Of a stretch of DNA of 64,000 nucleotides, positions 55,279 through 56,368 are shown piece by piece. The stretch spans positions 1 through 64,000 of the IMG/VR virus record IMGVR_UViG_3300022074_000015; one strand, given 5' to 3'. Below the pieces are notes generated by a model. That model made no database searches. It was given only the letters and a program-made list of their open reading frames with translations, and had not been told where the DNA came from. The DNA comes from a virus. Each line of letters begins with the position of its first letter. Positions within the stretch are counted from its first letter, which is position 1. A program made the translations under genes and the position numbers.

Positions 55279-55366
55279 CCATCTCAAATCAAAATTGAGA
55301 AGTAATTTCCAAAATCGGCGGAAAAAAAATCGCCAAAATTTTTTGATTTCTAAGATTTTATAAAAT

Positions 55367-55382
55367 TGTAACACAAGTTACA
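55367..55382 (+). promoter_or_regulatory. NtcA-binding site
   Basis: TGTAAC-ACAA-GTTACA, a perfect GTA-N8-TAC palindrome ending 7 nt upstream of the -35 box. Confidence 0.8.
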
Positions 55383-55389
55383 TAACTAC

Positions 55390-55418
55390 TTGACTACATA
55401 GAGTATAGGAGTTATACT
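55390..55418 (+). promoter_or_regulatory. Sigma70-type promoter
   Basis: TTGACT-N17-TATACT; predicted start ~55424-55426, just before the riboswitch. Confidence 0.8.
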
Positions 55419-55437
55419 ACTCTAGTACGTTCATCCC

Positions 55438-55638
55438 ATGCTCAGCATACTGCTGGCATTAACCCTTGCCCATCATAATGATGCGTCACCTTACGGGTGG
55501 CACATAAGTTGTGAAAGGTTTCTACAGAGAAGAATTGAAATCCTTATGGATGACAATTTTGATCGAAGAACTAAGTATAACTTAATAAGTTATCTTAGAT
55601 CGAAGTTAGAAGGTCAATGCAATCAGACGCTGACATAG
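55438..55638 (+). CDS. 66-aa protein nested in aptamer 1 P2
   Basis: ATG directly after CGTTCATCCC; TAG within the 3' strand of P2; hydrophobic N-terminus, two Cys. Confidence 0.65.
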   Translation: MLSILLALTLAHHNDASPYGWHISCERFLQRRIEILMDDNFDRRTKYNLISYLRSKLEGQCNQTLT

Positions 55639-55673
55639 GACGCAAGTAAGTCGCGGAACGGAGCGTTCATCCC

Positions 55674-55835
55674 ATGTTTGAATTTTTACTTTACTCTGGT
55701 ATTCACTGCACCGATGCTAAGGATATGATCCGACGTATTAATGCGAATAAAAGTGTAGATGTTATTATCAGAACTGAGGTGATTGAGACCATAAAGGGAT
55801 CAACACCTGAGTGTAAATGGGACGCAAACGACTGA
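55674..55835 (+). CDS. 53-aa protein nested in aptamer 2 (MFEFLLYSGIHC...PECKWDAND)
   Basis: Manual translation (not in the ORF track); GGAG 10 nt upstream; ATG directly after the second CGTTCATCCC. Confidence 0.65.
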   Translation: MFEFLLYSGIHCTDAKDMIRRINANKSVDVIIRTEVIETIKGSTPECKWDAND

Positions 55836-55904
55836 AGGAACGGGAAACTCGGATCACCCGAAAGGGTTAAAGGAGAAAAATCACCCAACTTCAGGAGTAA
55901 ACAA

Positions 55905-56072
55905 ATGAACACACTCACTCTCATCAAAAAGCAAATCGATAAGCAGTCTGCCCTGCGCGATGCACAACTTACTCACACTGCATATCGTGGTGTTAAGTAT
56001 AATGCTAATCGTGTAGAGTCCAAAGAGACTCACGGCACCTTCTGCTATCGTGGTCGTACTTACACCAAATGA
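55905..56072 (+). CDS. DUF4278-like YRG peptide (55 aa)
   Basis: MNTLTLIKKQ...TAYRGVKY...FCYRGRTY; AGGAG RBS; immediately downstream of the riboswitch. Confidence 0.8.
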   Translation: MNTLTLIKKQIDKQSALRDAQLTHTAYRGVKYNANRVESKETHGTFCYRGRTYTK

Positions 56073-56185: not shown

Positions 56186-56350
56186 ATGCTGAAGATCAAA
56201 CTTTATTATGATCTTCCAGAATACGATCCAGAGATTCACGAGCCTGATAGGGTCTTTAGACTACTAACATATCGTGGAGTGACATATGCTAAATGGGTTT
56301 TTCTTAAATCCAGAGGCATTCAAAATTGGAAAGTTTTCAAGAGAGGTTAA
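56186..56350 (+). CDS. Second YRG-motif peptide (54 aa)
   Basis: ...LLTYRGVTYAKW...; GAGG RBS; stop lies in the terminator. Confidence 0.65.
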   Translation: MLKIKLYYDLPEYDPEIHEPDRVFRLLTYRGVTYAKWVFLKSRGIQNWKVFKRG

Positions 56351-56368
56351 GAAACCTCTCTTTTTTTT
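56341..56368 (+). terminator. Rho-independent terminator
   Basis: GAGAGGTT-AAGA-AACCTCTC-T8. Confidence 0.88.

Follow-up and report, generated by a model that had tools for sequence, protein, structure and literature searches.

A predicted double glutamine aptamer of nested topology, with two small genes in its loops, at the 5' end of a cyanophage operon

The stretch of DNA analyzed here, which is called the window throughout, comprises 64,000 nucleotides (nt) and represents positions 1 to 64,000 of the IMG/VR virus record IMGVR_UViG_3300022074_000015. The locus studied lies on the + strand of a marine cyanophage, in a T4-like cyanomyovirus region. It contains two small open reading frames (ORFs), ORF1 and ORF2, which are embedded in what appears to be a single RNA domain (55428-55843, 416 nt) at the start of a small operon of the phage. 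The domain is predicted to be a double aptamer for glutamine, in which two cores sit at opposite ends of one common helix and one core is folded inside the other. For this explanation as a whole, which includes a deduced coupling of the two cores and a deduced ON switch for the downstream gene ORF3, we estimate a probability of roughly 0.78.

The domain starts with CGUUCA-UCCC (55428-37), which is followed by ORF1 (AUG at 55438 to UAG at 55638). The middle segment (55638-55673) reads GGACGCAAGUA-AGUCG-C-GGAACG-GAG-CGUUCA-UCCC, and it is followed by ORF2 (AUG at 55674 to UGA at 55835), the 3' end of which is UGG GAC GCA AAC GAC UGA. The 3' end of the domain reads AAGGAACG-G, up to position 55843. 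A preliminary description of this DNA had quoted the strings AGTA-AGTCG (55645-53), CGACT-GAA (55829-36), and GAACG-GAG-CGTTC (55656-68), and all three are found in place. A second copy of the RNA was not found in the phage record (86 kb, about 41% complete), which thus contains one copy only. The parts of the domain in the predicted fold are the following, with the basis of the assignment in brackets (MFE, minimum free energy fold):

55428..55432, +, 5' strand of the outer P1, CGUUC, pairs with 55838-55842 (MFE of 55426-55846, RNAalifold on relatives, Rfam alignment of the relative L013)
55434..55446, +, 5' strand of the outer P2, UCC-C-AUG-C-UCAGC, pairs with 55629-55640 (MFE) and holds the ORF1 start codon (55438-40)
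55438..55638, +, ORF1, 66 amino acids (aa), phrog_6471, in the loop of the outer P2; its stop codon UAG overlaps GGACGC
55629..55640, +, 3' strand of the outer P2, GCUGA-CAU-A-GGA (MFE, covariation in relatives)
55641..55648, +, outer junction CGC and 5' strand of the E-loop, AAGUA; C55643 is the linchpin base, which pairs with G55843
55649..55653, +, 5' strand of P3, AGUCG, common to both cores (covaries with 55829-33)
55655..55660, +, G-GAACG of the inner core, the 3'-type strand of the inner P1, pairs with 55664-68; invariant in all loci
55661..55663, +, loop of the inner P1, GAG; G55661 is the linchpin partner of C55825
55664..55668, +, 5'-type strand of the inner P1, CGUUC (RNAalifold, MFE)
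55670..55675, +, 5' strand of the inner P2', UCCCAU, pairs with 55817-22 (MFE) and holds the AU of the ORF2 start codon
55674..55835, +, ORF2, 53 aa, phrog_504, in the loop of the inner P2'; its last codons GAC GCA AAC GAC UGA form the inner junction, the 3' strand of P3, and part of the E-loop
55817..55822, +, 3' strand of the inner P2', AUGGGA (MFE, covariation)
55823..55828, +, inner junction CGCAAA, without E-loop; G55824 is the equivalent of the triple and ligand-contact base, C55825 is the linchpin base
55829..55833, +, 3' strand of P3, CGACU, common to both cores (covaries with 55649-53)
55834..55837, +, 3' strand of the E-loop, GAAG, which together with C55832 and U55833 reads CUGAAG (Rfam consensus alignment)
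55838..55843, +, 3' strand of the outer P1, GAACG, with linchpin G55843 (MFE, linchpin covariation)

The outer unit has the features of the glutamine-I family (RF01739), i.e., a P1 of CGUUC and GAACG, a P2, an E-loop of AAGUA and GAAG, a P3, and a linchpin. Its P2 is closed by pairing of 55434-36 with 55638-40 and is extended by AUG/CAU and UCAGC/GCUGA in the MFE fold. The assignment of the E-loop agrees with the RF01739 consensus GGAAGUAgGc...gCcGAAGGAACG as aligned to L013, and the variant AAAG is present in some relatives. AGUCG (55649-53) and CGACU (55829-33) form the sole P3 helix of the 416-nt RNA, the loop of which has a length of 175 nt and contains the inner core. It had been stated before that neither unit has a P3 hairpin of its own, and indeed none is present between AAGUA and GGAACG or between CGCAAA and GAAGGAACG. 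The strands of the inner core follow each other in the order P3a, P1 3' strand, loop, P1 5' strand, P2', junction, and P3b, which represents a circular permutation. The inner unit is devoid of the glutamine-I E-loop, its junctions read CGCAAA-P3 and P3-CG-GAACG, without AGUA/GAAG. Therefore, it is a variant and not a standard member of glutamine-I. One P3 and one E-loop serve two cores, while in a tandem arrangement each aptamer would have its own, and a 3' hairpin with a pseudoknot as P1-equivalent around GGAACG, as in glutamine-II, is absent.

Relatives were collected from IMG/VR with a pattern in which only the middle element was fixed (GGACGNAAGUA..GGAACG..CGUUCA), and at least 120 loci matched. 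The 120 listed loci and the window, together 121 sequences, were compared, and the locus counts refer to these. A blastn search with the region retrieved 368 records of Synechococcus and Prochlorococcus phages, with a top identity of 72-76%. As many as 115 of the 121 loci parse into one layout, with the conserved order CGUUCA, P2, CG(C/G)AAGUA, P3a, C-GGAACG, a loop of 3-6 nt, CGUUCA, P2', CGCA(A/C)A, P3b, and (G/A)AAG-GAACG, and a Shine-Dalgarno (SD) sequence and a small gene are found about 25-70 nt beyond the last GAACG. P2 as well as P2' can be a short hairpin or an insert of 150-230 nt with an ORF, and the following combinations were seen:

P2 hairpin, P2' ORF: 45 loci
P2 hairpin, P2' hairpin: 30 loci
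P2 ORF, P2' ORF (the type of the window): 23 loci
P2 ORF, P2' hairpin: 12 loci
P2 intermediate, P2' ORF: 5 loci

The P3 strands are always flanked by AAGUA and C-GGAACG on one side, and by CGCAAA and [G/A]AAG-GAACG on the other side. The two strands covary, and the helix occurs as AGUCG/CGACU, AGUCA/UGACU, GGUCG/CGACU, GGACGG/CCGCCC, AGCCGAC(U/G/A)/(A/C/U)GCCGACU, and AGACGACG/CGCCGCCU, and as AGCCAACU paired with AGUU(U)GCU (AGUUGACU and AGUUUGCU). MAFFT aligned the 5-bp and 8-bp (base pair) classes of P3 out of register; the helix was counted for its two outer pairs on an alignment of 27 compact loci (A1), in full on the 8-bp class, for which 15 compact loci were aligned (A2), and by script on all loci. 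In the 15 loci of the 8-bp class the innermost pair is G-C in eight, U-A in five, and A-U in two cases, and the outermost pair is A-U 13 times and G-C once. None of 500 shuffles equaled the covariation score, and sliding the partners by 1-3 columns abolished the pairing. On the 27 compact loci, 99.8% of the cells are paired for the whole structure, and none of 500 shuffles reached the covariation score; on the 15-locus alignment 92.3% of the cells are paired. While the lone 5-bp complement in one sequence is not significant, the comparative data thus place P3 far beyond chance. The complementarity of AGTCG and CGACT with its flanking E-loop, on which the preliminary description had built, is kept in the orthologues by compensatory changes across the 115 loci, and the E-loop fits the RF01739 consensus.

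The 8-bp version of P3 has some peculiarities. It contains two constant C.A mismatches (A2 columns 34/92 and 37/89), one of which is changed to A.C in L035, L056, and L093, a pattern that would fit a requirement for an A+.C wobble. In addition, its two strands are identical in sequence (AGCCGACU), which results in a two-fold symmetric helix between the cores. One locus, L100 (6502-6870), contains three units, and the P3a of the first unit (AGCCGACUC) is without a P3b partner; it might be a product of recombination.

Three types of evidence bear on the topology. First, RNAalifold without a supplied structure predicted four helices for the 27 compact loci: a P1 in which the last GAACG pairs with the first CGUUC, the P2 hairpin, the middle hairpin GAACG-loop-CGUUC, and P2'. 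Second, the MFE fold of 55426-55846 (421 nt) has a z-score of -5.07, and none of 100 shuffles folds as well. Its helices are the long-range P1, UCC.AUG.UCAGC with GCUGA.CAU.GGA around ORF1, AGUC/GACU, the middle hairpin, and UCCCAU/AUGGGA around ORF2. Third, the linchpins covary. The definition of the linchpin and the ligand contacts were taken from the glutamine-II structure, in which C19 in the ACGC strand forms a long-range pair with G41, the base after GAACG (PMC6698751). In the 115 loci the outer junction base and the base after the last GAACG are C:G in 101 and G:C in 14 cases, without any exception, and the 14 loci with G:C retain a G behind the middle GAACG. The inner junction base and the first base of the loop are C:G in 112 loci, G:C in L035, and G.U in L093, and the sole A.G case, L115, also lacks a start codon. 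Because RNAalifold, the MFE fold of the window, and the linchpin covariation agree, the nested topology was chosen, and sequence comparison strongly supports the nested, circularly permuted reading. An outer glutamine-I fold of the first CGUUC with the last GAACG, enclosing a permuted site, had been one of two options in the preliminary description, and it is this option that is borne out. It has been described that a two-piece glutamine-II RNA assembles on glutamine, which makes a long-range closure of P1 plausible.

In the crystal structure of glutamine-II, glutamine and a metal contact C1, G18, C39, G40, A37, and A38, and the ligand stacks between G18 and C19 (PMC6698751). The equivalents of C1, G2, G18, C19, A37, A38, C39, G40, and G41 (6QN3) are all present in the inner core, namely C55664, G55665, G55824, C55825, A55657, A55658, C55659, G55660, and G55661, and the contact positions are invariant in the 115 loci. 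G55655, just 5' of GAACG, is also present and invariant. Each core has its own long-range linchpin, C55643:G55843 in the outer and C55825:G55661 in the inner core. In sequence, each core retains the glutamine-contact nucleotides of the solved structures. Alternatively, only the outer aptamer might sense glutamine, and the inner one might be a decayed copy that serves as a structural spacer or as a hairpin presenting the ribosome-binding site of ORF2. The missing E-loop of the inner core would fit to this explanation, as would the fact that the loop of the inner P1 doubles as a GGAG SD sequence wherever ORF2 is present. However, a decayed copy is hard to reconcile with the invariance of every glutamine and metal contact nucleotide and with the covariation of the inner linchpin (G:C in L035, G.U in L093). 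Furthermore, the 30 compact loci without ORF2 keep the inner core intact, and glutamine-II binds its ligand without a glutamine-I E-loop. A silent inner core is thus regarded as unlikely.

The identical sequences of the P1 strands raise the question whether the RNA toggles, as a part of switching, between the nested fold and a side-by-side fold, and during transcription the first CGUUC would be able to pair with the middle GAACG at a time when the CGUUC of the hairpin is not yet made. However, the side-by-side state has no covariation support, the middle hairpin forms locally and fast, and the alternative state that is backed by sequences is a helix of P3b with the flank of the SD sequence of ORF3 (see below), so that toggling seems very improbable. 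The other option of the preliminary description, two P3-less aptamers side by side, in which the first CGUUC would take the middle GAACG and the middle CGUUC the last one, with AGUCG/CGACU as the kissing contact, is regarded as even slightly less likely and is rejected. The four P1 strands are alike and the pairings are possible on paper, the side-by-side halves of the loci L100 and L027 reach Rfam scores of 35.1 and 35.4 bits, right at the threshold, and true side-by-side doublets do occur in SAR86 chromosomes. Yet the SAR86 doublets have their own P3 hairpin and E-loop each, unlike the phage RNA, and RNAalifold and the MFE both return the nested fold. According to the linchpin covariation, the downstream junction belongs with the middle GAACG and the upstream junction with the last one; a side-by-side arrangement would produce G:G or C:C clashes in the 14 loci with a G:C outer linchpin, in which the compensating change is found after the last GAACG. 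The linker of just 3-6 nt has the size of a hairpin loop. In addition, a single A joins CGUUC to UCC, yet a P3 in trans would place the helices at opposite ends of a stack of about nine layers, and strand connectivity would forbid the coexistence of P3 and side-by-side P1s. That the match of AGUCG and CGACU is a by-product of the coding of the ORF2 C-terminus (..AND*) or mere chance can be dismissed, although CGACU lies inside ORF2 (AAC GAC UGA), because compact loci without ORF2 retain the pairing with covariation, and the C-terminal peptides DAND, DAKAD, and DAHD track the RNA variants and not the reverse.

The nested fold accommodates protein-coding genes in its P2 loops. ORF1 and ORF2 are full-length matches of phrog_6471 (E = 7e-35) and phrog_504 (E = 6e-22), respectively. 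Of the 73 ORFs in P2', 70 have exactly the same stop position, a U(G/A)A shared between P3b and the E-loop, and their C-termini (DAND, DAKAD, DAHD) are dictated by the RNA. The ORFs in P2 stop at UAG-GA-CGC or at the UAA within AAGUAAG (..GRK). Members of the ORF2 family differ pairwise by 0.37/0.18/0.50 at the three codon positions, and those of the ORF1 family by 0.24/0.18/0.44. The PHROG families, the 70 of 73 stops at one RNA position, and the codon-position bias together indicate that ORF1 and ORF2 are real genes. The P2 stems contain the start codons of both, and the P3/E-loop strand contains the stop codon of ORF2. The stems of P2 and P2' covary across 150-200 nt (UCCC/GGGA, CCCC/GGGG, UCUAUG/CAUAGA, UCCU(U/C)A/U(A/G)AGGA), and the fourth pair of the outer P2 is U-A, A-U, C-G, or G-C in the relatives. 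For the covariation of P2' across ORF2, none of 2000 permutations reached the observed value. A local chimeric P2, in which the outer GGA would pair with the inner UCC, was rejected, because the cognate long-range stems have 5.0-5.8 contiguous pairs versus only 3.0-3.7 for the chimeric stems; the cognate stems also exceed those with permuted partners.

The linker had been described earlier as a local hairpin over the ribosome-binding site of ORF2 that competes with the aptamers. The connection to ORF2 stands: in the AGUCGC class, all 45 loci that possess ORF2 have GAG(C/U) as the loop of the inner P1, and the six loci that lack it all have GAU or GGUA. The GAG loop makes GGAG (55660-63), 10 nt before the AUG of ORF2, which is likely its SD sequence. 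The role as a competitor has to be given up, as the hairpin is the P1 of the inner core, and folded alone (55636-80) it is not more stable than shuffles (z = 0.62). G55661 has two roles, it is a part of GGAG and also the inner linchpin base. The loop of the inner P1 varies between 3 and 6 nt, while the stems are invariant. The same small-protein family can occur in the outer P2 of one phage and in the inner P2' of another (L015, L009, L098, L116; L007, L100). It seems that the nested ORFs are cassettes that can change from one loop to the other, and recombination between the repeats of the aptamer sequence may be responsible for this.

Downstream of the domain two features are of importance for a possible regulatory output:

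55889..55897, +, CUUCAG (55889-94), overlapping the SD sequence AGGAG (55893-97) of ORF3; proposed expression platform
55905..56072, +, ORF3, 55 aa with YRG motifs, phrog_545, DUF4278-like; the gene most likely controlled by the switch

ORF3 matches phrog_545 with E = 1.5e-31 and the Pfam domain DUF4278 with E = 9e-5 and 23.2 bits, just below the cut-off of 25.3. CUGAAG (55832-37), which comprises the end of P3b and the E-loop, is complementary to CUUCAG (55889-94). All 30 loci with an AAAG E-loop have a U at the opposing position; with GAAG, this position is C or U. The platform helix has at least six contiguous pairs in 40 of 55 unique combinations, compared to 4.7 with shuffled letters, and it is part of the MFE fold of the 3' part of the window and of four of five compact relatives. 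Proteins of the DUF4278 type are under the control of glutamine riboswitches in cyanobacteria; the glutamine-I riboswitch of gifB, which encodes such a protein, acts as an ON switch, by which glutamine turns translation on (PMC6212724). For the phage RNA a similar scheme can be envisaged. Without glutamine, P3b would be held at the ribosome-binding site of ORF3 via CUGAAG/CUUCAG. Binding of glutamine at either core would stabilize the common P3, P1, and P1', and would free this ribosome-binding site (ON, as for gifB). From the architecture we infer a two-site ON switch with one platform. Both cores would act on one helix and would be energetically coupled, with a steeper response than that of one site, and a coupled or cooperative binding is plausible in view of the common helix. 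High glutamine would also lock the start regions of ORF1 and ORF2 in P2, P2', and the inner P1 loop, resulting in less translation, and ribosomes on ORF1 and ORF2 would in turn unfold the sensor. The full version of this model is tentative and rather on the unlikely side: a true two-site, one-platform sensor with opposite outputs on one mRNA, in which cooperative binding would free the ribosome-binding site of the IF17-like gene and bury the two nested starts, the translation of which would unfold the sensor.

Two further elements were observed around the ORF3 start. At 55843-55886, between the aptamer and the ribosome-binding site of ORF3, lies an extra module that is present in 11 of the 115 loci and consists of G(G)AAAC.CGGAUC, a hairpin, and (U/A)(A/G)AAGG. 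Its stem covaries (ACCC/GGGU, CAUC/GAUG, CUCG/CGAG, CUGC/GCAG, CAGC/GCUG), and the loops are GNRA-like. In the AGUCGC class, GUUCAU of the outer P1 is complementary to AUGAAC, codons 1-2 of ORF3 (55429-34/55905-10 in the window, 8339-8344/8449-8454 in L013). The ligand-free structures that RNAfold returns for L013, L031, and L060 include this helix; the ORF3 genes of the other class start with AUGGCA, and the match might be due to chance.

Several points weigh against the nested two-core switch. The strands of the outer and inner P1 never vary and thus offer no covariation of their own; the inner P1 variants CGCUCA and CGUCCA were not found in the IMG/VR scans. The 14 loci with a G:C outer linchpin belong mostly to one clade and might represent few independent events, and the swap of the inner linchpin rests on two loci. 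The missing E-loop of the inner core may mean that its affinity for glutamine differs or is nil. The platform helix has just 6 bp and is missing in 15 of the 55 unique combinations, and when the flanks are permuted among loci, the count drops only slightly, from 40 to 36. Translation of ORF1 and ORF2 would disrupt the domain and may limit how often it folds in vivo. And Rfam is silent on the window itself: the scan yielded no match of a glutamine family at the gathering score or at E <= 10, and the other weak Rfam matches in the window were attributed to chance.

The silence of RF01739 is put down to the inserts of 200 nt and 175 nt, which the model cannot span. The compact orthologue L013 is scored by RF01739 with 43.6 bits (threshold 35 bits) and is aligned as one aptamer, with P3 as AAGUA-AGU[38 nt]ACU-GAAGGAACG. 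The 38-nt insert in this P3 is the second, inner core. A match to RF01704 (glutamine-II) was absent in the Rfam scans of the window and of the scored relatives. With genes in the loops, standard scans will miss many of the phage copies.

The comparison with known systems reveals similarities to both glutamine families. Like the outer unit, glutamine-I (RF01739; the Synechocystis gifB/IF17 leader, PMC6212724) has a P1 of CGUUC/GAACG, a P2 closed by CC/GG, the junction ACG(C/G)AAGUA, an E-loop, a P3, and a linchpin, and gifB would share with the phage RNA the control of a DUF4278-type gene, likely with the same logic of translation being turned on by glutamine. In contrast to glutamine-I, the phage RNA has as its P3 loop a complete second core that is predicted to bind the ligand; genes of 66 and 53 codons fill its P2 loops, its copy in the window escapes the Rfam model, and its own E-loop/P3 strand is proposed to act as the anti-SD partner. 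Glutamine-II (the Downstream-peptide motif, RF01704; 6QN3, PMC6698751) shares with the inner core the CGUUC/GAACG helix, the ACGC strand, the C:G linchpin, the lack of a glutamine-I E-loop, and the G41 equivalent as first loop base beside a start region. However, glutamine-II is not circularly permuted, its P1-equivalent is a pseudoknot, and it stands alone, whereas the inner core of the phage RNA is closed by a hairpin and borrows the P3 of the outer unit.

More remote parallels exist as well. As predicted for the phage RNA, the tandem glycine riboswitch has two physically coupled sites for one ligand and one platform, from which a steeper response is expected, but its aptamers lie side by side and are held by tertiary contacts, while one phage core is topologically inside the helix of the other. 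Naturally permuted ribozymes of the twister and hammerhead types also have a circularly permuted conserved core, and group I introns also tolerate protein genes in peripheral loops. However, these ribozymes and introns are not ligand sensors, and the phage RNA has start and stop codons within functional helices.

A scan of bacterial and archaeal genomes found the nested form only on cyanophage-like contigs. In SAR86 chromosomes it found side-by-side glutamine-I doublets, each unit with its own P3 hairpin, E-loop, and linchpin. These doublets resemble the phage RNA in that one leader contains two glutamine cores, while the phage RNA has one common P3, one E-loop, and apparently one platform. 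The loci L121-L155 (SAR86 and other Gammaproteobacteria) are doublets that are joined by 6-9 nt, have a G19:C/U linchpin, and lie upstream of small genes. A review of tandem riboswitches (Sherlock et al., 2022, PMC9481103) lists 157 glutamine doublets and classes them as pseudo-cooperative RNAs with separate expression platforms; the word "nested" is absent from it. No paper was found that pairs "glutamine riboswitch" with nested, permuted, or interlocked, in a search that did not extend to Ames and Breaker (2011) and Ren et al. (2015). The accessible papers list such RNAs just as "tandem", and cyanophage papers list Rfam glnA matches only. In the glnA alignment of 2010 the insert columns of P2 and P3 are very wide, so that its authors evidently came across such copies. 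While the catalogued tandem glutamine riboswitches are independent neighbors, the cores described here are predicted to be nested, and the common helix would also contribute a strand of the likely platform. Such an RNA would be a natural design for a steep response to two ligands in about 85 nt, and a natural circularly permuted aptamer. The compact forms of 85 nt would offer a small construct for work on cooperativity and structure. In addition, the switch would tie a phage operon that includes a relative of a glutamine-synthetase inhibitor to the nitrogen state of the host.

Around the domain, the following transcription signals were predicted:

55390..55418, +, sigma-70-like promoter TTGACT-17-TATACT, the best match of the region (10/12), with a predicted start near 55425
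55317-34, terminator upstream of the domain
56339..56362, +, intrinsic terminator closing the small operon

Metatranscriptome contigs from two runs of one study begin at 55425 and have zero mismatches to the window, and this position fits to the promoter at 55390-55418. The region 55300-55416 is uncovered in four RNA runs, and uncovered parts are not taken as evidence. Contigs cannot show true starts, true ends, or the expression level, and a start of the mRNA at 55425, 3 nt before the outer P1, is thus weakly hinted at. Metatranscriptome contigs were also seen that join 55672 to 55820 with nine other letters in between, and similar joints exist nearby. A splicing out of ORF2 was considered and rejected, as the joints seem to stem from related phages in which a compact P2' hairpin replaces ORF2, i.e., from presence/absence variation. 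Finally, ORF5 (56186-56350, phrog_6192) contains LTYRG, a motif of proteins of the Downstream-peptide/DUF4278 type, and therefore the operon would encode at least two YRG peptides.

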